From Lytechinus pictus (taxonomy: Eukaryota), in NCBI RefSeq assembly GCF_037042905.1, contig NC_087251.1:36582001-36646000 (forward strand): a stretch of 64,000 bases of DNA, given 5' to 3'. The position numbers and the translations under genes are program-made. The notes beneath the pieces are model-generated. The model saw only the letters and a list, made by a program, of their open reading frames with translations, made no database searches and was not told the DNA's origin. Positions 10,756 to 38,300 of the stretch are shown in pieces (position 1 is the first letter of the stretch; each line of letters begins with the position of its first letter).

Positions 10756-11156
10756 TAGAAGAAGAAATCAGAAAAAGATTATGGTAATAAAAAAATCACT
10801 TTGGAGGCTTCGCGATACGTTTTTTTTTTGTGGAAAATAATTATGTTTGGTCCTGAAAAGACGATCTAAACTCGACGTCTCTGCAAGTATGTTTTTGCCT
10901 TTTTCAGGAGAGTGATAACAATAATAACATGTTGTGGATTTCAGTAATATATATTCATGGTCTTCAAAAGGGCCTTACATAATAAGATGTAAAATTTTCT
11001 TCATTCTGGGATTCTGAGCACCTGGCTTGAAAACGGAAGGTTCCATTTCGTTCTTTTCGTCTTGGCGCTCGAACGACTCGGCCAAGAATACAAATTAATT
11101 CTACAAGGAACGATAAGAGAACGTTCTGTTAAAGATTTGTGGAAAAAAACGCTTAA

Positions 11157-11738: not shown

Positions 11739-11968
11739 TTAATAACCTCATGTATAATTTGTTTCCACGATTTATTTCCATTAACGCATAAGTGCCGGCT
11801 ATTATAAGTATATTTTGTACATAGAGCTTGCATCAATAGGAAAAGAGCTATGAAATTATAATTTCCTTAAGTAATGATTTCCATTCTGTTATTCTATTTT
11901 TTGTGTGAAATATGATTTTAATTTCGTTGGTAACAATTCAAATAAAATCTTTTCTTTTCGTTTTCAAG

Positions 11969-12884: not shown

Positions 12885-15800
12885 GTATGATTTTTATTTA
12901 GATTGAAACCTTGAGAGAAAACAGATATTTTGTTTAAATTGGAAATCTTAAAGTGGAAAAACGTTGGGAATATAATATAAAAGACGGTTTAGCAGAAATT
13001 CGTTAAAGAATAAATGGATTATGATTTTTTTATATTTTGGGTTCTTTAAGCCAAATTCTTAGAAAATCATTTAAACGCGTACCAACTCATAAATCAATAC
13101 TTGCTTCTATGATAAAGTCATTTTTAGTCATCTTTCCAAGTTTCGGAACGACATTTCTTTATATAAAAATCGATTTATTTTATTGTCCTCCTGCATATTT
13201 TTTTTTTAATCCTGCAGACTGGACAAGCGATGTTTTTTATGCAGGTTTCCTCATTAAATTGTCTTTGAATTCAAATCGAAGTATTATTTAATTTAGATGA
13301 ATGATGCCGTATTTATATACCATGTTGAATCTTCTGATGTTATATTGTTTTTGTATTATGTTCCCATGTGAAATACGTAAAATAAAGTCAAATTCAAATA
13401 AAAAAGGGGGAGTTTATGTTATTCACGTTGGACAGCGTATCACATGCGACGTTACAAATTCATAATTCTCGTATTCTTTGACGGAATTTTATCAAATGTT
13501 CACCTTTATTTTTCTCACTTTTTGTTCTGATTTTATTAAAACGAACTTGTCAGTAGGATAGACATCCCTTTCAAACGGTATACTCATGTTTTGATAATTT
13601 TCATCCGTATAATAAGGATCCGGTAAAGAAATACTTCCCAAAATGTCTGAATTTCATGCGACTGATTTTACAAAAGGAATTTTACTGAATCCAAAATCAT
13701 AGCGGTAGCACACTTGGTAAATTGGATACTTTGAAACTAATGGTATATGATACATTTGTGACATATCAAGGACGTGTTTCTAATGACTGATTGAAATATT
13801 AATCAATAAAAAACTTAATGAAAGTTTTGTACATTCGCTACATGAACAAGAACACACAGGACACAATATCGAGAATGCCCTTTTTTCCTTCTGTCAAAGC
13901 AAAATTTGAAGGTTTTTTCTGGTTTCCTCAGCCAAACAGCAACTTCCGACAAGACAAGCTTCTCCCGTTTGCTGTACTACTTATTTTCATTATAATCAAT
14001 TTGTTGTTTAGTGTGTAAACAGCCATACTGTTCTCTGTGGTTTTGGCATTGAATTGAGGCGTCATTTTTACATTCCTTCGTCACCCGACGTTTCCTGTCT
14101 GAAATTTCAAAGTAGAGCACATGCGTATAATTTTTAGTAAGATTTTGTTAGATTTTGATTCCTAACGAATTCACCTCTTCTAAATAGAAAAAAAAATCGT
14201 GATTTAGGCCAGAAACAAGTTTCCTTGTGATCCGAAAATGTCTTTATTTGCTAATGCTACTTAACTCCGAGTAGAAATGGCACTCCCACCTACATACTCT
14301 TAAAATAAGCACGTGATTGTATTTTTTAATTACAAATCAGTTTCGTCGCTTTATACGTCCTTTTTTGTAGGATAATTTTCAAGTTTCATTCGACAACTAT
14401 TTTGAAATAATTCAATTTTACAAAATGATTTGACAAAAGAAAACCGAGGGCATTTTAATTTAAGATTACACTCTCGTATCACGATAAGAACGGGATATAA
14501 ATTATTATGCCCTGAAAACAAATTGATATTTGATTGAAAAAAAAACCCAGAATACCAAAAATATGGTTCAACTTTGCACTTGTCTTAAAGGTGCCCTTAA
14601 TTGATATTTTTGAAGGCGTGAACTTGAACTTTCTTAAACACTATATAGCCGATTTTGGTAGAATTGGCCGTGTGGGTGCCCAGTGAAAATATGTGTAATA
14701 TTCACAAAATTCTAAGTAACTTTTAGTATAATGAACTTCAAAGTGTGTCAGTTGGTGTCGCGGTCATTTGAGGTGGAATTCTTGACATAGCAATAGTTTG
14801 CTTGAAGCCTTAGGCACATCAGTGGTAACGATATCTTTCACTGTGACCTGATAAGGACATGCACACTTCGGCGATATTTTTAGTACCTTCAGAGGATATT
14901 TTACACTTTGTCAGATAAAAATGGTTCAATTTACTTCATATCATCTAATGATATGAACTACGTGGTGTTGGTCCAAATTTATATTTGATAAAATGGGGTA
15001 ATGGGAAAATAAGACAAAATGGGACATTGGTTAAATGGCAATTATACTTAATTGTTAGTAGAAGAATTGTTTGTAGACTTACTGAGGGTTAGACCATGTG
15101 CGATGATACCAAACGAAATTACTATAGAAATATCTAACTGGTTCTTCGACCTCTAACATCGAAATATATTTTAATATTGAGTCGCTTGCATTATCTTCAT
15201 GATTGAATTAAAAAGATCCAACTATATGAGTTACGTCACATATTTATATGTCTTATGCATCTTTGATCAACACTTACTGAGATATCCTACCCATTTTATT
15301 TATTTAAAATCTAAAGGTGGTATATAGCTGTCGAATTTTTTTCAGTCGCCGATTCTTCCTGAACAAGTTATATCTTCACTTCTAAACTATGCAGCGCCAT
15401 CTCTTTGTATTTGTTTCTTTAAAAAGTGTCCCTTCTTTGTATTTATTTCTTAAAAGGTGCTACTTGAGCACATATCTTACAAATTAAGGGATTAAAAATC
15501 AGAGAGTTACATATCTAATCTTGAATTACAATGATGGCATGCAATTTCGGGGGCTCTACCATCAAGGCTACCTACTCGTCGCATGCAAACACATTCTGTA
15601 TCGTAGGATAACTGTAAATATTTGTTTACTTTGCTTTGAACCCAACAGAATCTCAGGGGCTCTCTTTTTAAGACAACGAGGGCGACTCATTAATAAAGAA
15701 ATAGGCACAGTTGTCCATTGCTCACCGATGTTTATTTCCCCTACTCCTCTGCATACTTTTCACGAGCACTTTAATGAAATGAGTTGGGGTACGACGACTA

Positions 15801-15962
15801 CAGCCCACAACTGACGAATACACCAACACCTTTGTTTTATGACCTACATGTACCACCTGCACCTACACCATTCCTTCACCCTTGATTCTTGATAAGGTTC
15901 ATTCGTAATCTAATACCACTCCATTATAATTTCTTTGGTATTTCCCATTACCATGGTTACAG

Positions 15963-16112
15963 GTGAGTCTTCAGCAGCTGGGTTAGGTGAGTGGAGCTCG
16001 TGGTCATCGTGCTCCTCACCATGCGGCGGAGGAAAACGAGAACGAACTCGACCTTGTGGGTTGCAGTGCCGTACTACAGAAAGACAGGAGTGCAATAAAC
16101 ACATATGCTCTG
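15963..16112 (+). CDS. ISM1: Isthmin-like gene, coding exon 3 (thrombospondin type-1 repeat)
   Basis: [39 protein letters not shown] is a canonical TSP1 repeat. 150-nt phase 1-1 exon, acceptor ttacag, donor G|GTAGGT. Confidence 0.92.
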
Positions 16113-16431
16113 GTAGGTTGATGGGTATTCAATTCGTGAGCTGGTGTGATTGGGCTGCTGCCCCCCCCCCCCCACACACACACACACACACGTACAAAAA
16201 GTTCGCTTTTTTGTATTATTATTAGTAGGGGGTTTATATTTATTTAGATGATTTTTTTATTGTTAAATGAAATACATGTTAATTTTGTATCAATCAATCA
16301 ATAAATCTTACGCTCATCTACAATTTGTGCAGTATTAGCTCTAACTCGTGTAATATTCCTGGTATCCCATTCTGAGCCATTCAGCATGTCCAGTGTTTAA
16401 ATGACATTTTGAATTTTTCTTCACTTTGCAG

Positions 16432-16581
16432 GGTCCTCCATGACGTCAGAATCAGAGAACGATTTCGACGCGAGCGACCTCCCCAGTGCAACAAGGTCCA
16501 ATCAGGGATTCGTCATCAACCAGGGTTTCACCATCGATGTCGTTGACGAGATCGCCGACTCCATCGACAGTTCTGACTTCG
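16432..16581 (+). CDS. ISM1: Isthmin-like gene, coding exon 4 (acidic linker between TSP1 and AMOP)
   Basis: Acceptor ttcttcactttgcag, 150-nt open phase 1-1 exon, donor G|GTAAGC. It joins exons 3 and 5 in frame. Confidence 0.85.
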
Positions 16582-17767
16582 GTAAGCTTGCAAAAATAAC
16601 AGATTATTATTGCTTTATATTTCATATAGTCCAATTTCCATTGAGATAAATATCATTTTTCTTATCTTGAAGTCCCGCCGGCATATTTGTTCTCTTCCAA
16701 CCCGTTTGTCCCGTTTTCTTTCCACAAATAACCAAAAAACCTTGAAAAATCTGCAAATTGAAGTCTTGCAAATATATACATTCGAACACGTAACTTTGTC
16801 TGTTTGTCATTGTGAACGCAAGGATTACCCACATTGTGCCACGGTGACGAGAAGCTCGAGTCGTTGTATATTCCATTTCGTGTAAAATAAAGCTTATTTT
16901 GACAACGGGGAAAATTTAAGAAAAAAAATAAAATACTTATTAAAGAAAAAAACAGCGTCCGTCCTTGAATGAGTATTTCTTACTACTGCACATAAGGTCC
17001 GATTTACGAGTTGAGTCCCTTAATGATATCTAAAGTTTTACGAATTTTTAGAGTTCATTTACATCCGCCTCGCTTATTTTTCTTCGAATCTGTCCTCGGT
17101 CGAGCCGAATATTCCATGTCTGAACATGGTAATGAGTTTTAATCGGCTGTAATACATTTCCCCTGAGTTCATTGCTTCATTTGAGCTAGAGCGGCCGAAA
17201 TATATCAAGGGGTTGCTGGTCGCCCGAAGGAATCATAAATAAACCGTCGAATTTGGGTCAAAAGAAATACAAACGGATGTTTTTGTTGCGAGGGAAATTG
17301 GGCTAAGGACCGCAGGTAGCAAAAAATATGTCGAGGGGAGATTTGAAGTTCAATGACTGAGACTGCTTAGCGGGATGGTAAAGGGGTATTAATTTTGGTT
17401 CTTCGTTGTGTACTTGGTTTTGATTTCAGTCTACTGCGCAATGAGGTATAACTGAAAGTGTTCATTGACCTTTCAAAATGACGGTATAGGCCTGAACTGA
17501 TGCAGGCTTTTCACCATAGCCCATTCTATTTGATCTGTGATTATGCAATGTACCCTTGTCTAAAATTGTTTCTTTTTAGAACGGTAATTATTTGACCTCA
17601 AATTTCAAATAAGGTACGTGTGTGGGTGAGTGGGTGCACTTGTGTGTGGGTTGGGTGTGTGTAGTTTGGCATTTTACAGATTGTCATATGAATTATGTAC
17701 GCTTATTGGAGCGACCCTTAACCTTACCGTAATTCCGAAAGTTTGGGGATATGCCTAAGTCTATTGC

Positions 17768-17853
17768 TGAGGATCGAACCCCTGACTCTAAATAGTCGGC
17801 ACCTCTTTAGTCCGGCAGTGAAGTGTGAGTTAGGCCACTCGACGGCGGTACCT
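17768..17853 (-). mobile_element. Degenerate tRNA-derived SINE head
   Basis: The minus strand reads ...gccgtcgagtggcctaa...caggggttcgatcctcag (A-box-like and B-box-like). It does not form a full cloverleaf. Confidence 0.4.
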
Positions 17854-17856
17854 CTA

Positions 17857-18054
17857 CACTCTTAAAAAAGATTGGTCAGAGTATCCAATCTATTGGTGAA
17901 TATGTGTCTGAACGATAAAAATTGTCAATATCAACAACAATTCTGGTAGATTTTAACCAATAAATGAGCGATTTTGACCCTTTTTTTAGGTCTGGCACGT
18001 AGGCCCTATATTCACCAACACATTGGTTATTATGACCAATCCTTTTTAAGAGTA
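17857..18054. mobile_element. CACT-terminated MITE
   Basis: TIRs cactcttaaaaaagattggtca / tgaccaatcctttttaagagta. Confidence 0.75.
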
Positions 18055-18822
18055 CACATGTCAAATAACGTGTTATGTATGAGGCTACTAGCCTCATACA
18101 TGGACTTTGCTCTGTTTCTCTCTTGATATCTGATAGAATGCATGGTCAATGTTTAACTCCGAACCGATACCCCATGATCTTGTAATGGATTTATCAGACC
18201 AACTCCCTGATCAGAAACAACTCCACAATCCTGTGTTATGGTAATCGGTAGTTAATAGCGATTTTTTCACTCAGCATCCTACAGAGGATTCAAGAACGCA
18301 GTAAAAGTAAATGTATTGCATATGCCCGTCAAATGACAAAGAACACCTGGGACTCGAGTCTATATCGAAAATTTGAGAACCGGAACAGCAGACTCGTCTA
18401 AAGACTCTAAAGTTTCGGACTAAAAATCGCAAATAAAAACTATGTCGTTTTTCCAGATTCAAGGACTGAACTGCTCTTTTGATTCCCAAATTTTCGACAA
18501 TGACTTCTTGCTTATTCTTTGTCATGACTGGCATTTGACAATTAATACATTGACATTGAATCGTCCGAACGTCGCTTTGCAAAACTGCGTAATGACCGAG
18601 TCCAAGGATGTTCTGGAGCAGGTAGCCTATAGAATTTTCGTAATGCTATTCACACCGGCAAAACCGTCTCCAGACCGGATGTCATCATTACCATTAAAAC
18701 CTTCGGAGTTGGTTTCTTTGGTGTGACTGAATCATAAGACCACGACATAAGCCAATGCTAATGAAGATCCAGTCTTTCTGCAATTGATGATAGTTGGTTT
18801 TCTTTATCTTTGGTTATTTCAG

Positions 18823-19316
18823 ATAGCTGCGAAGAATGGATGCAGTGTCGTAGTGAGAAGCTGGTGTCCTACCTGTCCCGTCTGGATGACCTTCCGAGCT
18901 GTCCCTGCCACTTCCCAACCAACAACGCCATCGTGGATCCTCAGCAAGGCCGCGAGTTCCATTGGATTCAACAAGACCCTGAGGCATCCCGACTGGATAT
19001 CTACAAGCCGACCGCCAGTAGCTGTATCCAATCGGTACGCTCCTATCGCAGTACGTCGCTCGCCTCGCAGCAGTGCTGCTACGACGCCAATCAGCGGTTG
19101 ATCACCAGAGGCCAAGGGGCTGGTACGCCTCAGCTCATCACGGCACAGATTTCTCGAGAGCTGCATTACAAGATCGACATCCTGCCCTGGATCATATGCA
19201 AAGGAGACTGGACCAAGTACAATCGGATCAGGCAGCCTAATAACGGCAGAGAATGCGAAGAGATTCCAGATTTGCAGACATTTCTTTCTCAGGTTGAAGA
19301 AGCGCGGGACTTCTGA
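18823..19316 (+). CDS. ISM1: Isthmin-like gene, terminal coding exon 5 (AMOP domain), proximal copy
   Basis: DSCEEWMQC...DLPSCPC...IYKPTASSCIQS...QQCCYD...LITRGQGAGTPQLI...ELHYKIDILPWIICKGDWTKYN...PNNG closely matches the isthmin AMOP domain. Acceptor ggttatttcag, phase 1, stop TGA ending 19316. Confidence 0.95.
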
Positions 19317-22300
19317 ACAAGGAAGTTGTTTTGTCCTACTACATTCTCTTTGGGAGAGAAACAGGAATGGGACCAAGAAATTCGTAAGAAATTACTCGTC
19401 CTGGACAAACTTTCTGTTTGGTGATTTAGTATGCATTGCCAGCTAACGAACGTGGTGTATATCACCTGTAAAACAAATGGGGGCTGTTTTTTTTTTTTTT
19501 GGGGGGGGGGGACTTGGTTGAAATCTCTTTTCACTGATTGGCCTTTCCTGTCGCCGAGTGGTTTTGAAAGTGTGAGTGGATTGGGCGGGGCTGACCTTGT
19601 AAAAAATCTCAATCCGATGGTAATTATTAAGTTTTTGTACACATTTATTGATAAAACGTGGGGGAGTCAATACCCCCCCCCCCCCCCCACGGTTCTGGGG
19701 ATCATGTTTCTCTCTGTCTTTCATATTCTTTCTCCATTTTCTTTTCTCTTTTGTCATTCCCTGATAGCACTTAAACACATTTCAACATTTTCCCTTGAAT
19801 ACTTAAAATGAGCAGGTTGATTGATATTACCAAAATACATGTATCAAGTTCGTTTGAAGCAATCTGAATTTTGTTGAAACTCTTTGTTTTAGAGAGTGTC
19901 ATATCAATTATTATTTATTAAGAAGAATGACATGTTATAACCAGTTAACATATTGTTGTCCAGTTACGTCAAAATATGTCTATACTCATTTATATATCTG
20001 ACCATATAGATTTCATTATAATGAACGCAAAACCAATTTGATACTGGTTGAAAAAATACAATAATGATATTTCTTTTTTTAATTGGTAGTTATATGATGA
20101 TTATTGGGTGTGAATAAGGTATTTTTTCCTGTCAGGAGTTGATATAATGATGCTGTTAACGATATTCACTTTTTGAAAATGATAACTACCTCGAATGATA
20201 ATGTCATTGTTTGTATTATATACCTGTGAGTATATAGGCTAATGATTAGAAATTTTCGTTTCAGTCACACAACGAAACCGATAGGAAACCGATCGCTGAG
20301 TACTGTACGTCATTGCTTTGGCCGGTCTGGGTTTGGCTTCGCTGATGTGACTGACATTAGTCTACACATTGACATTCAATCGATATATGTAGAGGCGTAC
20401 CTGTTAAGGTCTACTTTTAAATTATTTTTGTACTGAAATAGTCACGGGTTTGTACTGTATATACTTATTGCTAGAATTGTGATTCTAGTATTTAAAACAG
20501 AACAGAATAGGATCACCCATTATCTCCTAACTGATTGGATTTGTGTTTGTACAATCATTTCAACTTGATATTTCAATCGCATGAATTGGACTTTTCTGCT
20601 TATGGAGGTAGATTTCAAACTGCGATTAAATATCAATTTAAGAGAAGAAACCATAGAATTTAAAGTAAAAACGGCGTGTTCGTTATAACGTTCTGTACAT
20701 TCTCTCATTTCAAATTTTGTGTGGTTGAAAACACCGATAATAACAATATCGTTTCTTATTTGCAGTCAATAAATTCCTGCAAATACTTCATTTGTTATAT
20801 TTTTTAAATCTCTATGGCAATCAAAAATAACATTAACGTTCTTTTTAAGTCACCAGTTTATTATTTTATGATTGCTCATGCTGTACAGTAGTCCTTTATA
20901 AATAAAACTGCATTTAAGAGATTATAGAGACATAATGTGTTTCTCAGGGAATTTGTATAATATATATGATGGTATGCATAATTATGTTGCCGAAAAATAG
21001 TTTTTTTTTTTTAAATATTGTAAGAATTCACCTAGTCAACCTATAATGTGTTGTGAACGAGGATGGTTCGATGTTGACCATTATTTTGAATGAATGTTTC
21101 TGAACGAACGTATATATCAACGTTCGAACTTTAACGTATCGATAAATTACATTTCCCTTTGTTTCTTTGTTATTTTTAACTTACTTGTTATTTTTCGTTG
21201 GCAATTTTTATCACATTATTCATTAATTAATTGACTTATTGATTTATTTTTCGGGGGGGGGGGGTAATGTATGACAGCGAAGGTGTGATTGAAAAGGGTC
21301 ATTTCAACGGAATTCGTTTTATTTCTTTTTTTTTTCATTTGGAACTTGTCTTGCCATTGTTCTTAAAAATAATATTCATATTCAAAATACGAATTTCCAC
21401 TATGGTAAGAATGAGAGGCTGAATTATGTTATATATTATTAAACTTGGTATTTCGGTATCAATGTTGTAGAAAATACTAGAAAACACGTAATTATTATGT
21501 TCCATGTTATATTTTTAATCAATATTTAACTTGCATGGAAGGTTATTAGTTCCGATCTAAATGTCTTTCCTGGTACCCAGGGGCGGAGTGGCGCCGTGCT
21601 ATTTTGAAAGGAGTGCAAAATGACCTATTTTAATATTGCATTACCATTACAGAGATAATGAAAGATTCAACGACACATATGTCTCTTTTTTATGCTCTTC
21701 TCTTTGCATCCCCCCTTTTCTTTTTTCCTCTGTTTCCCCCACTACTTGAAAAATCACAGGGGTGGTCGCCCCCGCCCCCGTAGGGCTGCCCCTGCTTGTA
21801 TTAGTTAATCGTTCGCATCTAGACTGATTTTAACATTTGCCGCGCCATTATTAAATTGGCTTTATATAATAATGTTTAAAATGATTTAGAATTCCTGGTA
21901 TCATCGATAAGAATCATATTGATGAGTCATGTGTTAAACGTTTATATTTTTGTTTTCATGTACTCTATTTATTTCATCAGATGATAAAATGTATAAAAAT
22001 TGTATATTATTTTATGTTTAGTTCCACGTTGAAAAACACTTGTATGTGATTAAAACAAATGGAAATAAAAAATTTAATTCCTGTATCATTTGGTTGTTTT
22101 GTATGAGAACAATGGAATATATCGTTTAAAAGTCTTTTAAAATGTGAAAGGTATTCTATCCATTTAGAGAGATGTGTGATTCATTCAATTAAAAAGTAGT
22201 ACCTTATTAAAGAAATAATAGGGCTGTTTCCTAAACAAATCGATAACAAATACAATAAACCGTGTAGAATCCTCGTCAAATGGAGCAGTTCTTGTATAGT

Positions 22301-23951
22301 AGAAGAGATTTTAAGAAAATAATTGTCGTGTTTGACGAGAAAAAAATTGTGAAAATGAGTGGATCATATCAAATGATAATGCTTTTCTTAAAGCATGATT
22401 TCTAATCATCTGACTGAAATTGTTCCAATGTTTTACAAAAAGAGTGTAGTGGTATTTGATAATATCTTAATCATGATCTATTAATAAGATTTGGTTGATC
22501 AAACGCGTCTGACTGAGAATATCTTTTCAAGGTTGGCTCATACTTAAAAATGCTTAGCTCATACCTGGAAAATATATTGATATTGTCCTTGGAGATTAAA
22601 TTCAAATTGTATTAAGAATGATTCAAATTCACTCTACTATAATTATAATACACCTGGACCCCGTCTTACAAAGAGAGATAGCTTCAAATAAAACTTTTGC
22701 AATTGAGCTCAATTTGCGAATGTATTATTAAAGAGATGGAAGTTTAGATCAGCGCAAAAGATGAGAAAGGTGAAAAGCTCAGTTGTATAACAAAACTAAG
22801 AGAGAGAGAGAGGGGGGGGGGTATAAATCTAATAATTTATTGTCGTCCCACAGTTCTCAATTTCATCTTTCTTATTTCGGTGAGAAGTCGCTCAAACCTA
22901 AATGAATTTTAGGTTGTCATTTCTGCAGATTGAAATGCTTTTCAAATTCTGAAGCCTTAAAACCATGACTTATAATATAAAGTGTGGACATTTCATCCAT
23001 AATCTACTTATTTTTGATGGGATATACGGTGATTTTTTTATCATACGAAGTAGAGAATGGCATGAGGAGCGGCGGATTCAAGATTTTATAAATCAAGGGG
23101 CACAGAAAGAACTTGTTCATGATTTCTTCAGAATTTTCTGATTAACCCACCCCCTCCCTGAAAAGATTTAGGGGGGGGGGTGATCACAATTTTTGCATTG
23201 CCTCCTGGATCAGGATCTGTCCTTGAATATGTCACGCTAAAGCGAAAAAATAACTTTCCCTGACTGCATGATTGCGGAAGATCAAATTCCAGGGGTGGTT
23301 CCAAAGGGGGGCATGGGACGAATGTCTCCTCTATCGTCAAAAAAGGAATAAAGAGGGAGAAAGAAGCAAGAAAATTATAAAAGGAGATCTGGACAGACAG
23401 TGCAACTATATAATACCCATTGATTTTTATACGGATCAGTAATTATAATACCCCTATAATTCAAATAAGAACATTAGATGATGTTACCTTTTGTTATCTT
23501 GCCCCCCCCCCCCATTTAATACCCCGCTGCCGCCCCTGATCTATGCAATACTGTATATCTGTTTGCAAAAAGGGGTGTCAGTCATGATCCAGGTGGCAGC
23601 GGTGCGGTGCCTTCTCTTGTATAAAGTGCATATGCTGATCATTTTACAGAGTTGAGGACTGGGATGGGGGAGAGCCCCTTGGCCCCCTGGATTTGCCAAA
23701 GGTCTATGAGTGCCAGTATAGGATTTCATTTTAAATCAGAGCAAAATCATATTAAATATTTATATTCCTGTATTAAAAAAACATACAAATAATATGGAAA
23801 TTGTCAATATGAATATTATTTATAATGAAAATCTCTTATCTCTAAATCGGCAGCAGTTGACTAATATTTGATCACTCGTCTGGTTTATTGGAACAAAGCG
23901 GAAAACACAAACTTCACACTCTCATCAAATACAACCCATGCAATACTAATT

Positions 23952-24645
23952 CTCGCTACCCCAAATAGGAACACAAATCTAATAATGCGCGAGACGAGAT
24001 AATTTTCACTCCGTCGGGTCGTCATCACCACTTCCGGTTCAGAGTCATGCTCGCGCGAGGTTCGCGATACTGATTCCACCACGCTGAAATCGATGCCAAT
24101 CAGCGTAATATGTACAGATTATAATACTTGTTATTTAATTTGGTCATTTTTGATTCCATTTGAATTATAAATAAAAATAAAAAATATATTTTACTTGAAA
24201 AAATGAATATCTTAAAATTTTGCATTTAGTGACCGGCCTGACATCACGATCGTATTCGACTAGACGCTAAATATATCTACAGCATTCATTCCGTTCAATT
24301 TTTCGTCGACCACAAAATGGATAAAAAATCAGTTTCGGAACTTAAACAAATCTTAACTGACAGATATGAGGAATACCGTGCAATGGAAAGCTTCGGGCAG
24401 AATTAGTGACTTTAGCAGAAAAGGCCGTTAAATGGTATCATGAAAGAGAGGGTTGTGATCACGAACTTTCCGAGCGAAAGCGACGTTGTGTTGTTGTGGA
24501 TGACGGCACTGTTGATCTGAATGGCAAAAACAGTGCATTGGACTTCCGAACAGGAAGTTGTAATACCGAAAAGCTATCCCATAATGCAATGCGCGTTACA
24601 GGGATTTTCCCGGATCTCGGCGAAATCGCTATTTGGGGTAGCGAG
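23952..24645 (+). mobile_element. Internally deleted DNA transposon with 17-bp perfect TIRs, apparent ATT target duplication and a SAP-domain ORF remnant
   Basis: ATT|CTCGCTACCCCAAATAG ... CTATTTGGGGTAGCGAG|ATT. It is absent from the paralogous site (~35148) in duplication copy 2. Confidence 0.85.
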
Positions 24646-24744
24646 ATTGGAAGTAATCAATCAATAATATCCTTGATAGTCACAGCTGACGGATGAGTGC
24701 TCTGTACGAATAATATAGTTACGGGTTACATCGCGCGCATGTAA

Positions 24745-24817
24745 GCCACCTTAGCTCAGCGGTTAGAGCACTGGTCTTGTAAACCAGGGGTCGAGAGTTC
24801 TAATCTCTCAGGAGGCT
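24745..24817 (+). tRNA. tRNA-Thr (anticodon UGU), variant and possibly impaired copy
   Basis: Cloverleaf GCCACCT-TA-GCTC..GAGC-A-CTGGT-CTTGTAA-ACCAG-GGGTC-GAGAG-TTCTAAT-CTCTC-AGGAGGC-T. It has an A:A mismatch in the acceptor stem and a TTCTAAT T-loop. A T-run terminator lies ~15 nt downstream. Confidence 0.85.
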
Positions 24818-26778
24818 GGGGCGTGGTTCCTCTTTTTTTTTCTTATAATAATGAAATAGATTCATGAAGAACTATCGTACCAGGGAATGTGTTTGAAGAA
24901 TTCATTGAAAATAAGTCACTATATCACGTTTCGAGAGATTTCTTTTTTAGAAAATTTTTACTCTGTTAATTTGCTGCCAACCCACCCCCCCCCCTTTCCA
25001 CAAAGACAGGTTCAACATTTAGCACAATTTAAATGAAAAACAAATCGATTTTAAAAAAATACAATACCATATCAATATTGCATACACTTAATAAATTGAA
25101 ATTAATATTCATGATTCCAGGCTTAAAATCATGATAAATAGGATTATTGATCATGAATCAAACTTTTATTCAATTTAAATTCTCTTATCTTGATGATTTT
25201 ATCTATTCATAAATTATATCAATTCATATTTTCATTCATCTAATTATTGCCCATAACATCGAATTTGAAAATCATGTCATTTAAGAATCCCTCTTCAAAA
25301 TTACTTATTATGTACGTTTTATGCTTATGTTATCAATTCTTATTTAAATGTTATGCTAGTTTACAACACAATTATGAATGAATTCTTTATATATTTTCAT
25401 AGAGGTGAAATGTTGTAAGCATTCTCATTTCATTCTTTCAGTAGTCAATAATGTATATTGAATTTTGTTATACACGAACTATACGCAAAATCGTTAACTG
25501 AATTAAATCAAACAAATATAAATCATGCAATGTCTTTCTCATTTCCACTTGAGATATCCCGTTAATCTCTTATTTACAAATAGGCCCGTTTACTATTAAA
25601 CATGTCATAAGTGTATGCATACATTTTTAAAACAAATTATGTTCTTGACATTCTGAAAACTTGCATCAAATATCAATTAACGTATGCAAATACTTAATTC
25701 ACTTCAACGAATACAAGTTTGCAGGAAAGAAATAGTCATTTAGTATTTATAAGCTTATCGAAATGATATCATCGGAATCAAATAGTTTATTATGACTTGT
25801 TGCTATTGTTGGCAATCCTCTGGGGAGGTTTGAGAATGGACAAACCTTTTGGGATCCTATAATTAGGGTCTTTGGTGAAAGAGGGCACATGAAGCAAGTG
25901 AAATGATGAATGCTACAATCGTCAATGATGTTGAAATAATGACATGGAAAAAGAAAACACGTCATGCATGATCACGCATTCCCTGTAACTCATGACGGTG
26001 GACATAATAGAAGGTGGGGTGTGTGTGTGTGGGGGGGGGGGGGCCGGGGGGGGGGGCTTTGAATAAAGAACAAAAGATCTTTCAACGGATTGTGTTCAAT
26101 TGATTATGCAAGGAACGAGTAAGGTGCTATGTTATTGGGATCCTATAATGATTATAAGGGTCTTTGGTCGAAAAGGGTTATCATCCCCATGGAAGCAATT
26201 GAAATGGTGAATGCTACAATAGTCAATGATGTTATTCGATGAAGACAAATGAAAATGACATGGAAACAGAGAGCCGATCTCAATTTTAAAAAAATATGTA
26301 TATCCTCTGCTATGAAAATGGAGACACGGGACAGATGATATCGTGGCAGTTCAAGTATAAGAGGTAAGGTACAATTATGACATTACTAAAACTCTCATTT
26401 ATATTATTTCGCGTGATGTATATAATTATGATACGTAGCGATTTTACTCCAATTGTTGTGCGTTTGATAAGTAGGCCTTTTTCTCTATATCATCATACTG
26501 TATCATTCAGTGTTCTATGGCTCTTTTACAGAACAAGCATTTATGGGGTAGAGATAGAATATGCCCTATTGATGAGGTTTGCTTTCATGGTTGGTGAATG
26601 TTGATTATAAAATGGTACGGCAAGAGTGAGAATGTTAAGTCGGGCAAGCGGAACGGAACCGAAATCTGTTTACTCGAAAGAATGTAATTTGAATATGAAA
26701 AGACTCATTTATTGGTTTATATTCATTTGGTCCAATGCCAATTCGTCCAATAGCCATTTAGTCCATGTACCATTTCTA

Positions 26779-27020
26779 CACTGCAAAAACTCCGGTGTTG
26801 ATTTAACACCAGCCCGGAATCTATATATGTCCACACCAGAGAAGTATTGAAACAACACCAGTTTGGAATCAAACCGATGCTGTTTTAATAATTGGTGTTG
26901 TATAAACAACTATCTGGTCTTAGACCAAAAGGAAACTGGTGTTGTTTAACACTTCTCTGGTGTGGACATAATATATAGATTCTGGGCTGGTGTTAAATCA
27001 ACACCTGAGTCTTTGCAGTG
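26779..27020. mobile_element. Palindromic CACTG MITE with TA target duplication
   Basis: TA|CACTGCAAAAACTCCGGTGTTGATTTAACACCAGCCC ... GGGCTGGTGTTAAATCAACACCTGAGTCTTTGCAGTG|TA, almost fully fold-back. It is absent in copy 2 (~37157). Confidence 0.9.
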
Positions 27021-29691
27021 TAATAAGACTAAGTGTTAATTGGGCAAAATGAATGAAAATAAAACGAATATTAGACCAACTGGTTATTGGACAAAATGGT
27101 TGTTAGACGAAATGTTGATGGACGGAATTGCGGTGGACTAAATGGAGGTAGACTATGTCGTGAGTGGACGAGTTGGCAGTGGACGAATTGACAATTTACC
27201 CATCCATTGAGTATGATGTAATCAATAATCATTGTACCATTCCTTTGCATAGAGACTGAGCACGTGCTGTAAACCAATAACGAGGGGGAGGGGCTTCCAA
27301 GGATAATCAAAATCTATTTCAAGTGTTGTGCATGAATCAAGTGCGTTGCTATGTCAGTAAAAAAAAATCGTTTGTTATGCATATTGAAGACCCCAAACAA
27401 TTCGACTTCAGAGCCCTATCACTTTGGATGCTACAACAGGGGGGGGGGGGTGAGCGATTGGCTTTCAAGGGAGAACAAATGATCTTGCAATGAATAATGC
27501 AATAAACCGGAATCCGATGTGTTGTTGCTATGTAAGGAAAAAATAATCTTATATAAGGCGATAAAAATCTTTTTTTTAAACAAGTTCATATGGACAATTT
27601 TCATTTCAGTTGATATTCCTAGGTTTTTTTTTAAAGAGGTTTTATGCATATTCATATTTTCTTGCATGTGTCCGAGTCATATAAAACTTTTAAACAAATT
27701 GGACCTTCTGCCTTCTAGTCAGGCGCTCGACTTATTTTAAGATTTGAACACATTTGTAGTAAGTAGATTAAAAATGTGGGATACTGAATTTGCCGAAAAG
27801 CCATGGCCCTGGGAAGCACCCTTCAGCACCCACAAAAATTTCCTTGGGGGTGTTGTGTGTGTTATTCTCCAAAGGCAGCATCCCAGGTATTCTGGAAAAT
27901 GGAAAATGTAACGGAAACGACCTTCATTTTGACATGAAACACTTTTTCTGTTGTTGCTTCTGAAAATTCTCGAGACCAATTTGACCTCCATTTGTAGCGA
28001 AAACTTTCTTTTTGTTGCTTTTTTTCTTTTAAAATTTACATCAGCACCCCCATTAAAAAAAATCGTTCCCGGGGCCCTGATAAAAGCCGGTCCTTCCTGA
28101 TAGAAGCTTGGAATAAGGTAGTCTATAATTGGCGCAAATCAGTATATTTTTCAAACCTGAAAAGAATTATGAATATTACCTTGTTTCAAGCTTCCATATT
28201 TATAGTAAATTTAATCGCCAGTTGCATTTCTATTACCGTCTGATTGTGCTTTATGGTGGTTGCACTGCATTCTGCTTTCTTTCCTCATGGAGTGGTCCCA
28301 GTTCTGTCAGGTTCTTTAGACGTAATTGCAAAAGTCATTTCCGAAAGTGAAACTGCAAACTCTTGTGGCTTCGCGTCGCAGCATGTAAAATCAGTGACTT
28401 TGCTAGTAAAATAACACCAGTAAAAAAGAGAAATGTGGAATAAGGGGGGAAATGTATATTTGGCCTTACAAATTTGTTGAGAATGAAAATTGATGACCAC
28501 CCGCCACCTCGTAGTACATCGCTAAGCAGGGGCGGATCCTGGATTGTCCACTGGGGGCGGCAAAATGTTCATCGTATTTTTGTTTTCTGATTAGCTGCCC
28601 AAAGAGCCAAAGTCGTTTGAGGATGGACCGGGGGGGGGGGGTATAGTCATACAAGGCGAAGTTTAAGTAATTTTTAGCTTTGTTAAAAAAAAAATAGGTC
28701 TCGTAATCTTCAAGTAATGATGCGAACTTTTTTCTCCTTCACCTCTTTCTTTTTTATCACCTCCAATTGTATATTTTAACCTGTGAAAAATGTCTTCGTG
28801 CATTGTAATTTTTGTAACATATGAAAAATGAAGACGCTGTCATAAAACATCAAAGTGAGCTGATTACTTTTATAGTCCAATGTAAAGCAACATTGTGATT
28901 GCACAGTATGCTGACATTTTTTTGTTTTGTTTTAAATCGTCTTTGAAACTCCGTGGAAAACCCAAAAGTTATTGCTATTTAGGACTGGATAAAGACCACC
29001 CAAATATATTATTTTAACCCCCTTTTGTTTGACAAAAAACAGATACGATATGTCACTAAATTCGCGGGAAGCTGTATAGAGGCAAATATATGCATGGTTG
29101 TCTAACAGCCAATTGGGAAAATTAAGGTATGATCAAAGGGTGATGACGTGGGTGAAGCGGTAGAATACCAATCGTATTGGGACATCCCTCATTCACAACA
29201 TCGCTCTTCATTAAAACCATATTGTTATCATGAGCTAATTATCAGGGGCGGCGACAGGGTATTGGAGAACCGGAACAGCAGTTTCGTCTAAATTATGTCG
29301 TTTTTCCAGATTCAAGGACTAAACTGCTCTTTTGATTCCCAAATTTTCCACAAAGACTTCTTGCTTATTCTTTGTCATGACTGGCATTTGAAAATTAACA
29401 CATTGATCTTGAATCGTCCGAACGTCGCTTTGCAAAACTGCGTAATGACCGACTCCGAGGATGTTCTGGAGCAGGTAGCCTACTGGGGTACCTATGTATT
29501 TTCGTAATGCTATTCACACCGGCAAAACCGTCTCCAGACCGGATGTCATCATTACCATTAACAGACCTTTGGAGTCGGCTTCTTTTGTATGACTGTAGCA
29601 TAATAAGGCCATGACATAGCTCACTGCTAATGAAGATCCAGTCTTTCTGCAATTGATGATAGTTGGTTTTCTTTATCTTTGGTTATTTCAG

Positions 29692-30185
29692 ATAGCTGCG
29701 AAGAATGGATGCTGTGTCGTAGTGAGAAGCTGGTGTCCTACCTGTCCCGTCTGGATGACCTTCCGAGCTGTCCCTGCCACTTCCCAACCAACAACGCCAT
29801 CGTGGATCCTCAGCAAGGCCGGGAGTTCCATTGGATTCAACAAGATCCTGAGGCAGCCCGACTGGATATCTACAAGCCGACCGCCAGTAGCTGTATCCAA
29901 TCGGTACGTTCCTACCGCAGTACGTCGCTCGCCTCGCAGCAGTGCTGCTACGACGCCAATCAGAGGTTGATCACCAGAGGCCAAGGGGCTGGTACGCCTC
30001 AGCTCATCACGGCACAGATCTCTCGGGAGCTGCATTACAAGATCGACATCTTGCCCTGGATCATATGCAAAGGAGACTGGACCAAGTACAATCGGATCAG
30101 GCAGCCTAATAACGGCAGAGAATGCGAAGAGATTCCAGATTTGCAGACATTCCTTTCTCAGGTTGAAGAAGCGCGGGACTTCTGA
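29692..30185 (+). CDS. Duplicated isthmin terminal AMOP exon (distal copy); possible alternative last exon or non-functional partial duplicate
   Basis: Same length, frame, acceptor and stop as 18823-19316. By eye there are 11 substitutions (2 nonsynonymous, Q>L and S>A; 9 synonymous). No upstream exons lie within the duplicated unit. Confidence 0.7.
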
Positions 30186-30248
30186 ACAAGGAAGTTGTTT
30201 TGTCCTACTACATTCTCTTTGGGAGAGAAACGGAAATGGGACCAAGAA

Positions 30249-30574
30249 ATTCGTAAGAAATTTCTCGTCCTTGACAAACTTTCTGTTTGGTGATTCAATA
30301 TGCACTGCCAGCTAACGAACGTGGTGTATATCACCTGTAAAACAAATGGGGGCTGTTTTATATATATATATATTTTTTTTTTTGGGGGGGGGGACTTGGT
30401 TGAAATCTCCTTTTCACTGATTCGTAAGAAATTTCTCGTCCTGGACAAACTTTCTGTTTGGTGATTCAGTATGCACTGCCAGCTAACGAACTTGGTGTAT
30501 ATCACCTGTAAAACAAATGGGGGCTGGTTTTGTTTTTTTGGGGGGGGGACTTGGTTGAAATATCCTTTTCACTG
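30249..30574 (+). repeat. Local ~170-bp tandem duplication in the 3' UTR of the distal AMOP exon
   Basis: The unit attcgtaagaaatttctcgtcc...ttttcactg starts at 30249 and again at 30420. It is single-copy in the proximal 3' UTR. Confidence 0.9.
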
Positions 30575-31475
30575 ATTTGCCTTTCCTGTTGCCGAATGGT
30601 TTTGAAAGTGTGGGTGGATTGGGCGGGGCTGACCTTGTAAAAAATCTCAATCCGATGGTAATTATTAAGTTTTTGTACACATTTATTGATAAAACGTGGG
30701 GGAGTCAGTAACCCCCCCCCCTCCGGTTCTGGGGATTATGTTTCTCTCTGTCTTTCAGATTCTTTCTCCATTTTCTTTTCTCTTTGTCATTCCCTGACAG
30801 CACTTAAACACATTTCAACATTTTCCCTTGAATACTTAAAATGAGCAGGTTGATTGATATTGAAACTCTTGTTCTAGAGAGAGTCATATCAATTATAATT
30901 TATTAAGAAGAATGATTTGGTGTAACCAGTTAACATTTTTTGGCCAGTTACGATAAAATATGGCTATACTCATTTTTATATCTGACTATATAGATTTCAT
31001 CATAATGAACGCAAAACAAATTTTATACTGGTTGGAAAAAAATATGATATTTCCTTTTTAATAGGTGAGTTATATGAATTATGTGAATTTGGTATTTTTA
31101 TCCTGTCAGGAGTTGATGATGTTGTTAACGATATTCACTTTTTGAATATGATAACTACCTCGAATGATAATGTCATTATTTGTATTATATACCTGTGAGT
31201 ATATAGGCTACTGATTAGAAATTTACGCTGCAGTCACACAATGAAACCGATAGGTAACCGATCGCTGAGTACTGTACGTCATTGCTATGGCCGGTCTGGG
31301 TTTGGCTTCGCTGATGTGGCTTTGATTAGACTACACATTGACATTTAATCGATATATATAGAGGCGTACCTGTTAAGGTCTACTTTTAAATTATGTTTGT
31401 ACTGAAATAGTCACGGGTTTGTACTGTATATATACTTATTGCTAGAATTGTGATTCAAGTATTTAAAACAGAACA

Positions 31476-31645
31476 CACTCTAAAAAACGAAGAGCTATAA
31501 TTTAGCTCTTAAAGAGCATGTATAGGCGACTGCGCACTTCGGAGTGCTGATTTTTCTCGCTCAAATTTTAACTCGACAAATCAGCACTCCGAAGTGCAGT
31601 CGACACGCTCTTTAAGAGCTAAATTAGCTCTTCGTTTTTAGAGTG
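31476..31645. mobile_element. Palindromic CACT MITE with 2-bp CA target duplication (EnSpm/CMC-like)
   Basis: CA|CACTCTAAAAAACGAAGAGCTA ... TAGCTCTTCGTTTTTAGAGTG|CA. It is absent in copy 1 (~20503). Confidence 0.9.
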
Positions 31646-34600
31646 CATGCAGAATAGGATCACCCATTATCTCCTAACTGATTGGATTTGTGTTTGTACT
31701 ATCATCTCAACTTGATATTTCAATCGCATGAATTTGATTTTTTTGCTTATGGAGGTAGATTTCAAACTGCGATTAAATATCAATTTAAGAGAAGAAACCA
31801 TAGAATCTAAAGTAAACGGCGTGTTCGTAATAACGTTCTGTGCATTCTCGAATTTCAAATTTTGTGTGGTTGAAAACACTGATTATAACAATATCGTTTC
31901 TTATTTGCAGTCAATAAATTTCTGCAAATACTTCATTTCTTATATTTCTAAAATCTCTATGGCAATCAAAAATAACATTAACGTTCTTTTTAAGTCACTG
32001 GTTTATTATTTTGTATTGTTCCTACTGTACATTAGTCCATTATAAATAAAACTGCATTTAAGAGATTATAGAGACATAATGTGTTTCTCAGGGAATTTGT
32101 ATAATATATATGATGGTATGCATAATTATGTTGCTGAAAATAGTGTTTTTTAATATTTTAAGAAGTCACCTAGCCAACCTTTGATGTGTTGTGAACGAGG
32201 ATGTTTCGAAGTTTACCATTATTTTGAATGAATGTTTTCTGAACGAACGTATATATCAACGTTCGAATTTTAACGTATCGATAAATTACATTTCCCTTTG
32301 TTTCTTTGTTATTTTTAACTTATTTGTTGTTATTTTTCATTCGCCATTTTTAACACATTATTAATTCATTAATTAATTAATTGACTTATTGATTTTTTTT
32401 CTGGGGGGGGGGGTAATGTATGACAGCGAAGGTGTGATTGAAAAGGGTCATTTCAACGGAATTCGTTTTATTTTATTTTTTTTCAAATTTGAACTTTTCT
32501 TGCCATTGTTCTTAAAAATAATATTCATATTCAAAATACGAATTTCCACTATGGTAAGAATGAAAGGCTGAATTATGCTATATATTATTAAACTTTGTAT
32601 TTCGGTATCAATGTTGAAGAAAATACTAGGAAACACGTAATTATTATGTTCCATGTATATTTTAATCAATATTAAACTTGCATGGAAGGTTATTAGTTCC
32701 GATCTAAATGTCTTTCCTGGTACCCAGGGGCGGAGTGGCGCCGTGCTATTTTGAAAGGAGTGCAAAATGACCTATTTTAATATTGCATTACCATTACAGA
32801 GATAATAAAAGATTCAACGACACATACGTCTCTTTTTTATGCTCTTCTCTTTGCATCCCCCCTTTTCTTTTTTCCTCTGTTTCCCCCACTACTTGAAAAT
32901 TCACAGGGGTGGTCGCCCCCGCCCCCGTAGGGATGCCCCTGCTTGTATTAGTTAATCGTTCGCATCTAGACTGATTTTAACATTTGCCGCGCCATTATTA
33001 ATTTGGCTTTATATAATAATGTTTAAAATGATTTAGAATTCCTGGTATCATCGATAAGAATCATATTGATGAGTCATGTGTTAAACGTATATATTTTTGT
33101 TTTCATGTACTCTATTTATTTCATCAGATGATAAAATGCATAAAAATTGTATATGATTTTATGTTTAGTTCCACGTTGAAAAACACTTGTATGTGATTAA
33201 AACAAATGGAAATAAAAATTTTAATTCCTGTATCATTTGGTTGTTTTGTGTGAGAACAATGGAATATGTCGTTTAAAAGTCTTTTAAAATGTGAAAGGTA
33301 TTCTATCCATTTAGAGAGATGTGTGGTTCATTCAATTAAAAAGTAGTACGTTATTAAAGAAATAAAAGTGCTGTTTCCTAAACAAATCAATAACAAATAC
33401 AATAAACCGTGTAGAATCCTCGTCAAATGGAGCAGTTCGTGTAGTAGAAGAGATTTTAAGAAAATTGTCGTGTTTGACGAGAAAAAAAATTGTGAAAATG
33501 AGTGGATCATATAAAAATATAATGCTTTTCTTAAAGCATGATTTCTAGTCATCTGACTGAAATTATTCCAATGTTTTACAAAAAGAGTGTAGTGGTATTT
33601 GATAATATCTTAATCATGATCTATTAATAAGAATTGGTTGATCAAACGTGTCTGACTGAGAATATCTTTTCAAGGTTGGCTCATACTTAAAAATGCTTAG
33701 CTCATTACTGGAAAATATATTGATATTGTCCTTGGAGATTGAATTCAAATTGTATTAAGAATTATTCAAATTCACTCTACTATAATTATGATACACCTGG
33801 ACCCCGTCTTACAAAGAGAGATAGCCTCAAATAAAACTCCTATTGCGATTGAGCTCAATTTGCGAATGCATTATTGAAGAGATGGAAGTTTAGATCAGCG
33901 CAAAAGGTGAGAAAGGTGAAAAGCTCAGTTGTATAACAAAACTAAGAGAGAGAGAGAAGGGGGGGGGGGTATAAATCTCATAATTTATTGTCGTCCCACA
34001 GTTCTCAATTTCATCTTTCTTATTTCGGTTTGAAGTCGCTCAAACCTAAATGAATTTTAGGTTGTCATTTCTGCAGATTGAAATGCTTTTCTAAGTCTGA
34101 GGCCTTAAAACCATGACTTATATAAAGTGTGGACAATTTCATACATAATCTATTTATTTTTGATGGAATATGCGGTGATTTTTTTATCATACGAAGTAGA
34201 GAATGGCATGAGGAGCGGCGGATTCAAGATTTTATCAATCAAGGGGCACAGAAAGAGGTTGTTCATGATTTCTTCAGAATTTCCTGCCTAACCCATCCCC
34301 CTCCCTGAAAAGATTTAGGGGGGTGATCACAATTGCATTGCCTCCTGGATCAGGATCTGTCATTGAATATGTCACGCTAATAAAGCGAAAAATTACTTTT
34401 CCTGCTCTATAATAGCGGAAGATCAAATTCCAGGGGTGGCTAGGGGTGGTTCCAAATGGGGGCAGGGGACGAATGTCTCCTCTATCGTCAAAAAGGAATA
34501 AAGAGGGAGAAATGGGCAAGAAAATTATAAAAGGAGATCTGCAGGACAGACAGTGCAACTATATAATACCCATTGATCTTTATACGGATCGGTAATTATA

Positions 34601-35249
34601 ATACCCCTATAATTCAATCAAGAACATAAGATTGTGTAACCTTTTGTTATCTCCCCCCATCTAAATACCCCGCTGCCGCCCCTGATCTATATACGCAATA
34701 CTGTATATCTGTTTGCAAAAAGGGGCGTCAGTCATGATCCAGTGGGCAGCGGTGCGGTGCCTTCTCTTGTATAAAGTGCATTATGCTGATCATTTACAGA
34801 GGTGAGGACTGGGATGGGGGGGGGGGGAGCCCCTTGGCCCCCTGGATTTGCCAAAGGTCTCTCATATAAGGAAAACTTTACCTATCTATTTTATTCATCA
34901 AAACATCTTTAAGGAATGCCAGTATAGGATTTCATTTTAAATCAGAGCAAAATCATATCAAATATTTCTATTCCTGTATTAAAAAAAACATATGGAAATT
35001 GTCAATATGAATATTATTTATAATAATAATCTCTTACCTCTAAATCGGCAGCAGTTGACTAATATTTGATCACTCGTCTGGTTTATTGGAACAAAGCGGA
35101 AAACCCAAACTTCACACTCTCATCAAATACAACCCATGCAATACTAATTGGTTGGAAGTAATCAATCAATAATATCCTTGATAGTCACAGCTGACGGATG
35201 AGTGCTCTGTACGAATAATAGAGATACGGGATACATTGCGGGCATGTAA

Positions 35250-35322
35250 GCCACCTTAGCTCAGCGGTTAGAGCACTGGTCTTGTAAACCAGGGGTCGAG
35301 AGTTCAAATCTCTCAGGTGGCT
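35250..35322 (+). tRNA. tRNA-Thr (anticodon UGU), intact copy
   Basis: Perfect cloverleaf: acceptor GCCACCT/AGGTGGC, anticodon loop CTTGTAA, T-loop TTCAAAT. Pol III T-run at ~35338-35345. Confidence 0.95.
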
Positions 35323-38300
35323 GGGGCGTCGTTTCTCTTTTTTTTCTTATAATAATGAAATAGATTCATGAAGAACTATCGTACCAGGGAATGTGTTTGA
35401 AGAATTCACTGAAAATAAGGCACTAATTCACGTTTCGAGAGATTTCATTTTTAGAAAATTTTTACTCTGTTAATTTGCTGCCAACTCCCCCCCCCTCCCC
35501 ACAAAGACAGGTTCAACATTTAGCACAATTCAAATGCAAAACAAATCGATTTATAAAAATGCAATACCATATCAATATTGCATACACTTAATAAATTGAA
35601 ATTAATATTCATGATTCCAGGCTAAAAATCATGATAAATAGTATTATTGATCATGAATCAAATTTTGTTGCAATTTAAATTTTCTTATCTTGATGATTTT
35701 ATCTATTCATGAATTCTATCTATTCATATTTTCATTCATCTAATTATTGCCAATAACATCGAATTAAATCGAACATGTCTTTTAAGAACCCCTCTTCAAA
35801 ATTACTTTTGAGAAATTAATGAAGTTATATGTACGTTTTATGCTTATGTTATCCATTCTTAATTGAATAGCATGCTAGTTTACAACCTATGAATGAATTC
35901 TTTATATATATATATTTTCATGGAGGTGAAATGTTGTAAACATTGTCATTTCATTCTTTCAGCAGCCAATAATGTATATTGATTTTTGTTATACACAAAC
36001 TATACGCAAAATCATTAACTGTATAAAATCAAACAAATATAAATCATGAAATGTCTTTCTCATTTTCACTTGAGATATCCCGTTAATCTCTTATTTACAA
36101 ATAGGCCCGTTTACTATTAAACATGTCATAAGTATGCATACTTTTTTTTTAACAAATGATGTTCTTGGCATTCTGAAAACTCTGCAAATACTTAATTAAC
36201 TTCAACGAATACTTGCAGGAAAGAAATATACATGTATTAGTCCGAATCATTTAGAATTTATAAGATTATCAAAATGAAATCATCGGAATCAAAATAGTTT
36301 ATTATTACTTGTTGCTATCGTTGGCCTCTGTGGAGGTTTGAGAATGGACAAGGAGAAATCTTTAAAAAAAAACATGTCATGCATGATACGCATTCAGTGT
36401 AACTCATGACGGTGGACATAATGGGAGGTGCATGGGGTGTGTGTATGTGGTTTGAATAAAGAACAAAAGATCTTTCAATTGATTGTGTTCAATGGATTAT
36501 GCAAGGATCGAGTAAGGTACTATAGCTTAGACGTTTTGGGACCCTATAATGATTAGGGTCTTTGGTGGAAGCAAGTGAAATGGAGAATGCTACAATTGTC
36601 AATGATGTTATTCGATGAAGACAGATGAAAATGACATGAAATAGACAGCCGATCTCAGTTACAAAAAAAATGTATATCCTCTGCTATGAAAATGGAGACA
36701 CGGGACAGATGATATCGTGGCAGTTCAAGTATAAGAGGTAAGGTACAATTATGACATTTGTAAAACTCTCATTAATATTATTTCGCATGATGTATATAAT
36801 TATGATACGTAGCGATTTTACCCCAATTGTTATACGTTTGATAAGTAGGCCTTTTCTCTATATCATCATACTGTATCATTCAGTGTTCTATGGCTCTTTT
36901 ACAGAACAAGCATTTGTGGGGTAGAGATAGAATATGCCCCATTGATGAGGTTAATTTGCTTTCATGGTTGGTGAATGTTGATTATAAAATTGTACGGCAA
37001 GAGTGAGAATGTTAAGTCGGGCAAGCGGAACGGAACGGAAATCTGTTTACTCGAAAGAATGTAATTTGAATATGAAAAGACTCATTCATTTGTTTATTTT
37101 CATTTGGTCCAATGCCAATTTGTCCAATAGCCATTTAGTCCATATACCATTTGGTCTAATTAGACTAAGTGTTAATTGGGCAAAATGAATGAAAATAAAA
37201 CGGATATTAGACCAACTGGTTATTGGACCAAATGGTTGTTAGACGAAATGTTGATGGACGGAAAGGCATAAGACTAAATGGAGGTAGACTATATGTGGTG
37301 AGTGGACGAGTTGACAGTCGACGAATTTGACCTCCATTTTGTAGCGAAAACTTTTTTATTCAAATTTTTTCAAAACTTTTCAAATTTACATCAGCACCCC
37401 CATTAAAATAATCGTTCACAGGGCCCTGATAAAAGCCGGCCCTTCATGATAGAAGCTTGGAATAAGGTATAGTCTTAATTGGCGCAAATCAGTATATTTT
37501 TGAAACCTGAAAAGAATTATGAATATTACCTTGTTTCAAGCTTCCATATTTATAGTAAATCTAATCGCCAGTTGCATTTCTATTACCGTCTGATTGTGCT
37601 TTATGGTGGTTGCAATGCATTCTGCATTCTTTCCTCGTGGAGTGGTCCCAGTTCTGTCGGGTTCTTTAGACGTAATTGCAAAAGTCATTTCCGAAAGTGA
37701 AACTGCAAACTCTTGTGGCTTCGCGTCGCAGCATGTAAAATCAGTGGATTTGCTAGTAAAATAACACCAATAAAAAGAGAAATGTGGAACAAGGAGGGAA
37801 ATGTATATTTGGCCTTACAAAGTTGTTGAGAATGAAAATTGATGACCACCCGTCACCTCGTAGTACATCGCTATGCAGGGGCGGATCCTGGATTGTCCAC
37901 CGGGGGCGGCAAAAATGTTCATCATATTTTTTTTTCTGATTAGCTGCCCAAAGAGCCAAAGTCATTTGAGGATGGACCGGGGGGGGGGGTATCGTCATAA
38001 AAGGCGAAGATTAAGTAATTTTTAGCTTTGTTAAACAAAAATAGGTATCGTAATCCTCAAGTTATGATGCGAACTTTTTTCTCCTTCACCTCTTTCTTTT
38101 TTATCACCTCCAATTGCATATTTTAACCTGTGAAAAATTTCTTCGCGTATTGTAATTTTTGTAACATATGAAAAAAGAAGACATTGTCATAAAACATCAA
38201 AGTGATTTAATTACTTTTAGAACCATATAGTTCAATGTAAAGCAATAGTGTGATTTCATAGTCTGTTTTGTTTTAAATCGTCTTTGAAACTCCATGGAAA

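Follow-up and report, generated by a model that had tools for sequence, protein, structure and literature searches.

A tandem duplication at the Lytechinus pictus isthmin locus with two intact AMOP terminal exons, possibly two alleles joined head to tail

In the window, the 64,000-nucleotide stretch of Lytechinus pictus DNA analyzed here, the isthmin gene runs into a tandem duplication whose two copies, A and B, each carry an AMOP terminal exon. The duplication is genuinely present in the assembly; it is not a product of chance and is of an ordinary kind. We tentatively favor, over an assembly artifact and over a working alternative last exon, the reading that A and B are preexisting isthmin 3' alleles that were joined by a real interallelic duplication. 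An allelic origin of the two copies, taken jointly over this reading and the artifact, is likely in our judgment, and the junction between them is, on balance, probably real.

Structure of the duplicated isthmin 3' end

The isthmin model on the forward strand consists of five exons (10196-10300, 11969-12884, 15963-16112, 16432-16581, and 18823-19316) encoding 604 residues, and it was identical letter for letter to L. pictus record P0027. Coding exon 1 is present as a single copy, exon 3 codes for the TSP1 domain (Pfam TSP_1), and the phase-1 donor of exon 4 is compatible with either AMOP exon. In the assembly (G000), exon 2 was matched once and the AMOP exon twice. Pfam placed one TSP1 domain (TSP_1, residues 349 to 387) followed by one C-terminal AMOP domain (441 to 566) in P0027, and one AMOP stretch was found in all 12 isthmin proteins scanned. 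By eye the N terminus is hydrophobic, a putative signal peptide. A 436-base repeat with internal inverted structure occurs both upstream of the gene (8301-8736) and in the first intron (11153-11742), the two occurrences being 97.7% identical.

Terminal exon A (coding part, 18823-19316) is the annotated last exon in P0027 and encodes Q448 and S496; terminal exon B (coding part, 29692-30185, same strand) has L and A at these variable sites, lacks upstream exons of its own, and resembles orphan record P0029. Both match Pfam AMOP, and each is 494 nucleotides long, with identical acceptor context, phase, and TGA stop. Exon B is intact in acceptor, frame, stop, and poly(A) signals. Our recount of the 11 differences between the exons agreed with the original prediction of 9 synonymous and 2 nonsynonymous changes, the latter being Q/L at 18844/29713 and S/A at 18987/29856 (pS 0.085, pN 0.0052, pN/pS 0.06; Fisher p = 3e-5). 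Across 27 homologues, 10 residue types occur in the Q/L column and 6 in the S/A column; to judge from these sequences, both changes fall in unconserved, freely varying columns. Relative to L. variegatus, one residue is derived on A and one on B. Had exon B long been silent, about 10.5 nonsynonymous changes would be expected on it, of which 1 was observed, without any frameshift (Poisson p = 3e-4). This count upholds the purifying selection that had been proposed for both copies. As for its timing, selection while the copies were still alleles fits better than selection after the duplication, the other option offered. Allelic depth seems to reach the distance between A and B, and the synonymous bias requires no postduplication selection.

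By self-comparison, with approximate boundaries, copy A extends over 10.9 kb (18374-29263) and copy B over 9.3 kb (29264-38602), head to tail on the forward strand. The start had been placed inside the last isthmin intron, where we located it at about position 18374. The unit is far larger than one exon and exceeds the first description: each copy begins with the end of the intron and the AMOP exon and continues through the entire 3' untranslated region (UTR) and roughly 7 kb of intergenic sequence, which includes a tRNA-Thr(TGT) gene. The 3' UTR of copy A spans 19317-22080 (end approximate; contig depth stops in the bin before 22079, and an AATAAA lies at 22064), and its homologue in copy B, placed by alignment and represented by B-type letters in RNA contigs, spans 30186-33230 (end approximate; AATAAA at 33211). 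The junction (29261-29264) contains neither N letters nor inserted bases and has 3 shared bases, or 5 to 6 together with a 7-base loss. As a clue to mechanism this microhomology was set aside, being too short to separate repair from chance.

Over 8820 aligned columns the copies differ by 537 substitutions; the alignment also contains 86 gaps, of which 13 are at least 20 bases long. A 48-base indel separates the UTRs at 19829. Away from gaps, the intron was 5.2% diverged, the exon 2.2%, the UTR 5.1%, and intergenic DNA 5.8%. Poor sequence at contig ends was considered as a cause of the divergence and dropped, the substitution frequencies of 8.7% in the final 360 bases of copy A versus 6.0% at its start being undecisive. 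No N letters occur in the window or across the surrounding 864 kb of contig C7. A survey of these 864 kb by unique words, a method that misses pairs built of repeats, found 5 duplicate pairs, of which only A/B was both adjacent and about 6% diverged; by the same method, no second tandem like it was found in the other 800 kb surveyed. The region of the left breakpoint (18306-18505) lies within a repeated element that attracts many foreign RNA contigs and reads (depth 125 to 196), and 37 bases of this repeat are missing from copy B just behind the junction. The proximal UTR of copy B (30249-30577) contains a local tandem repeat of about 160 bases, which is absent from copy A.

The tRNA-Thr(TGT) genes of copy A (24744-24818) and copy B (35249-35323), both on the forward strand, differ at two places by eye. 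The copy A gene has an unpaired acceptor-stem position and a T-loop base that departs from the consensus, and the copy B gene looks canonical; the difference could mean that the copy A allele is weak or that complementary decay has begun. Terminal inverted repeats, 18, 11, and 15 bases long, bound three inserts that are each specific to one copy. One of them, a 0.7-kb insert private to copy A and located just upstream of the tRNA gene (23951-24646), has perfect 18-base repeats, lacks further copies in the 864 kb surveyed, and is likely a nonautonomous DNA transposon. Two small MITE-like inverted-repeat inserts are found at 26777-27022 (copy A only, with relatives nearby on C7) and at about 31474-31650 (UTR of copy B only). 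Elsewhere on the contig, a 3.7-kb unit occurs three times head to tail at 95 to 99.6% identity (G000:C7:36326832-36337970), and a satellite with a repeat length of roughly 186 bases, its units about 90% alike, forms long arrays with hints of higher-order repeats at about 36209000-36237000 and 36683000-36746000.

Sequence types in RNA and in database records

RNA was mapped to positions 11900-22400, covering exons 2 to 4 and copy A, so that B-type reads appear as differences. The mapping covered 4 of 23 runs and 40 of the 175 variants listed, with a raw depth of 1 to 6 reads from about 6% of each run. X1 and X4 are contig sets from two studies, taken as RNA by guess and from their splice joints; X21 and X23 are raw reads from a third study. 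Contigs of both X1 and X4 contained the joints between exons 2, 3, and 4, and one X4 contig held a joint from exon 4 to an AMOP exon, assigned to neither A nor B. In each set, a UTR stretch without a single difference from A (19799-20239) was accompanied by a B-type path that carries the 48-base deletion; the depths were 8.0 versus 11.2 in X1 and 12.3 versus 7.5 in X4, which corresponds to a B share of about 58% and 38 to 41%, respectively. B letters were present at 27 of the 30 listed differences inside the duplication. B-type sequence is real, and some animals very likely transcribe it, with a share of roughly one half. Such a share suits heterozygotes, and use of both copies from one chromosome would also give it.

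In the upstream exons, X1 differed from the window at 4 sites, 2 of them nonsynonymous, and X4 was identical to it in the three pieces shown. Depth over the upstream exons versus exon 5 was 7.4 versus 13.5 in X4 and 11.2 versus 22.2 in X1, a comparison confounded by 3' bias and bubble removal. The X1 exon contig had 4 differences from A over 13 A/B sites, 3 of them shown as B letters. That it represents a recombinant allele was considered and set aside, as a bubble-removing assembler would give the same mix from a pool of A and B. This contig aligns from 18821 with 27 further letters, and the end of exon 4 (16513-16581) is not covered by any X1 contig. In X4, a contig breaks within 18821-18875, directly behind the Q/L site, and a second path with a depth of about 5 presumably branches off there. 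The pattern in the two sets may reflect a different exon-4 allele or a different upstream exon.

In the raw reads of X21 and X23, the B letter was absent at 20318 (0/4 and 0/2, 0/6 together), at 20350-20361 (0/3 and 0/2, 0/5 together), at 20426 (0/2 and 0/2), at 19670 (0/1 and 0/3, 0/4 together), and at 19283 (0/2). At a B share of 40%, the chance of finding 0 of 6 B reads is 0.047, and stage or tissue could differ. The B letter was, on the other hand, present at 20389 in all 5 reads (3/3 in X21 and 2/2 in X23), the cleanest of which had no other difference. In X21, it was also found in 2/3 reads at 20377 and in 1/2 at 20273 and 20286, accompanied by 8 and 11 further differences. A third UTR type, roughly as distant from A as B is, is indicated by two reads; A and B differ at 10 sites across the span concerned. 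In these few raw reads, B letters occur in a mosaic with A letters. No third genomic copy that could be the source of the third type was found in G000, where the copy count is a lower bound.

The noncoding divergence of 5 to 6% between A and B stands beside heterozygosities of 2.9% in L. variegatus, 4 to 5% in S. purpuratus, and 4.4% in Echinometra, figures that are genome-wide and come from other species (PMC9557091). The older record P0001 has an A-type AMOP domain and differs from the model upstream at 3 of 604 residues, at which L. variegatus agrees with P0001. The older record set comprises this A-type gene and a 158-residue B-type orphan without upstream exons and with one extra change, the latter present only in the nr source. 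No full-length B-type protein was found among 4 database cluster members, and 24 candidates (3 hits) included no record with AMOP alone from another named sea urchin genome. The isthmin records of L. variegatus and S. purpuratus are single, in a collection that may be incomplete. A literature search found no report of a duplicated isthmin last exon, and the papers retrieved on isthmin, AMOP, and alternative splicing included no echinoderm study by title or abstract start.

Origin of the two copies

A joining of two alleles, the reading we prefer, would involve a presumably young unequal exchange between homologous chromosomes, by which the end of an A-type segment was connected to a site within the last isthmin intron on a B-type homologue, setting the two head to tail. 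Copy A would have stayed the working exon. Exon B would mostly be skipped, as the acceptor and poly(A) signal of A are identical to its own and are transcribed about 11 kb sooner; it would persist as an orphan, still intact because of its youth. The B-type RNA of X1 and X4 would then derive from ordinary B-type alleles located where the gene normally lies. An allelic origin is supported by an A/B divergence near urchin heterozygosity, by the third UTR type, and by upstream exons that vary as much. For a real junction speak the absence of N letters in 864 kb, the resolution of the nearby triple tandem, and the older record with a B-type orphan. Two observations count against the joining of alleles: A-identical and B-identical UTR sequences occur together in both X1 and X4, for which one chromosome expressing both needs fewer assumptions, and the neighboring triple tandem, with its lowest identity at 95%, is unlike A/B at about 6% divergence. 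Most fresh tandem duplications copy one chromosome and are nearly identical at the start.

It is possible, if on the doubtful side, that an A/B heterozygote at a single-copy locus had both haplotypes written in tandem, i.e., a heterotype false duplication with false exon gain. In the account given in PMC9516828, heterotype errors are common and form the main class of false duplications; the copies usually lie on either side of a gap but are sometimes connected by unsupported sequence, and 61 to 92% of false duplications in newer assemblies lie on the same scaffold, some without an N gap. The same account also includes a true allele-specific tandem duplication within one contig (PMC9516828). 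At the isthmin locus, an error of this type would explain why divergence is at allele level and alike over coding, UTR, and intergenic DNA, why each contig set holds at most two types per site at about 40 to 60%, why a third type appears in other animals, and why no B-type isoform is annotated. However, the sides of the junction are nonhomologous, and overlap alone would therefore not join them; the remaining 800 kb of the survey contained no similar case, and near-identical tandems were resolved; and the older record set likewise pairs an A-type gene with a B-type orphan without upstream exons.

The original prediction had exon 4 splicing to either terminal exon of a real, common tandem, giving two near-identical proteins with different 3' UTRs. 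We consider such a switch unlikely, although its structural basis stood: both exons have an intact acceptor, a phase matching exon 4, a stop, and a poly(A) signal, exon B is not decaying, and X1 and X4 both contain transcribed B-type UTR next to a stretch identical to A. The identity of the X4 upstream exons with those of the window and the contig break behind the Q/L site, with its putative second path, would suit a switch as well. Several points speak against its functional part. In a collection of records that may be incomplete, the two isoforms are neither both annotated nor kept in relatives, as seen from the missing full-length B protein and the single records of L. variegatus and S. purpuratus; the few raw reads included no B-type read; the two distinguishing residues are unconserved; and a B share of 40 to 60% would demand frequent skipping of an identical proximal acceptor together with poly(A) read-through. 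Quite unlikely, too, is a combined course of events, in which a still-segregating duplication caught two old terminal-exon alleles and exon 4 splices to both near-equally, amounting to permanent heterozygosity of one exon; if true, such splicing would represent an alternative last exon at birth from allelic variation. We regard as very improbable that B is transcribed from an upstream exon or promoter of its own in the spacer, as a short AMOP-only gene. An older annotation did call a 158-residue stand-alone protein from the B-type exon, and the extra letters of the X1 exon contig suggest, by their coordinates, an upstream neighbor ending unlike exon 4 of the window; yet the product would lack a signal peptide, its record is confined to the nr source, and the contig is explained equally well by another allele in which exon 4 ends differently. 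An old duplication in which exon B has been silent and drifting ever since could account for 6% divergence, many indels, and copy-specific transposon-like inserts, but the count of nonsynonymous changes and the lack of a frameshift reject it and leave it practically no probability.

Significance and comparison with known systems

Most likely, little is at stake: either two alleles were partially duplicated or the assembly slipped, in an animal of high heterozygosity. Caution is nevertheless advisable with L. pictus isthmin probes, guides, and 3'-end counts, as the orphan copy will draw B-type reads. If the older A and orphan B records came from another animal, the tandem would be real and shared. 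If both copies are real and used from one chromosome, they would offer an example, testable at low cost, of how standing allelic variation gives rise to a new alternative last exon. Even then, the two proteins would be close to equivalent, because the Q/L and S/A columns are unconserved, and any effect would be exerted through UTR regulation and not through the protein.

Relative to the isthmin family, the window shows the same layout of TSP1 and C-terminal AMOP; a single AMOP domain results from either exon, so that there is no difference at the protein level. Alternative last exons originating from tandem exon duplication are characterized by homologous terminal exons of equal phase, one donor, and separate poly(A) signals, all of which apply to isthmin. 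They differ from the present case in that the records of isthmin relatives are single, the duplicated block is mostly intergenic, and use of the distal exon is here only a candidate. With heterotype false duplications the locus shares adjacent allele-like copies, an exon doubled beside its gene, and annotation of a "-like" orphan; in contrast to the assembly gap typical there, none lies between the isthmin copies; the main criteria used there are half depth and discordant pairs (Ko et al. 2022, PMC9516828). The heterogeneous duplication of mosquito ace-1 (Milesi et al. 2017, PMC6121789) places two alleles of one locus on one chromosome, as the reading favored here would for isthmin; there, the joined units are entire genes whose distinct functions are selected, whereas at isthmin the duplication comprises the last exon and downstream DNA, with two unconserved residues distinguishing the copies.
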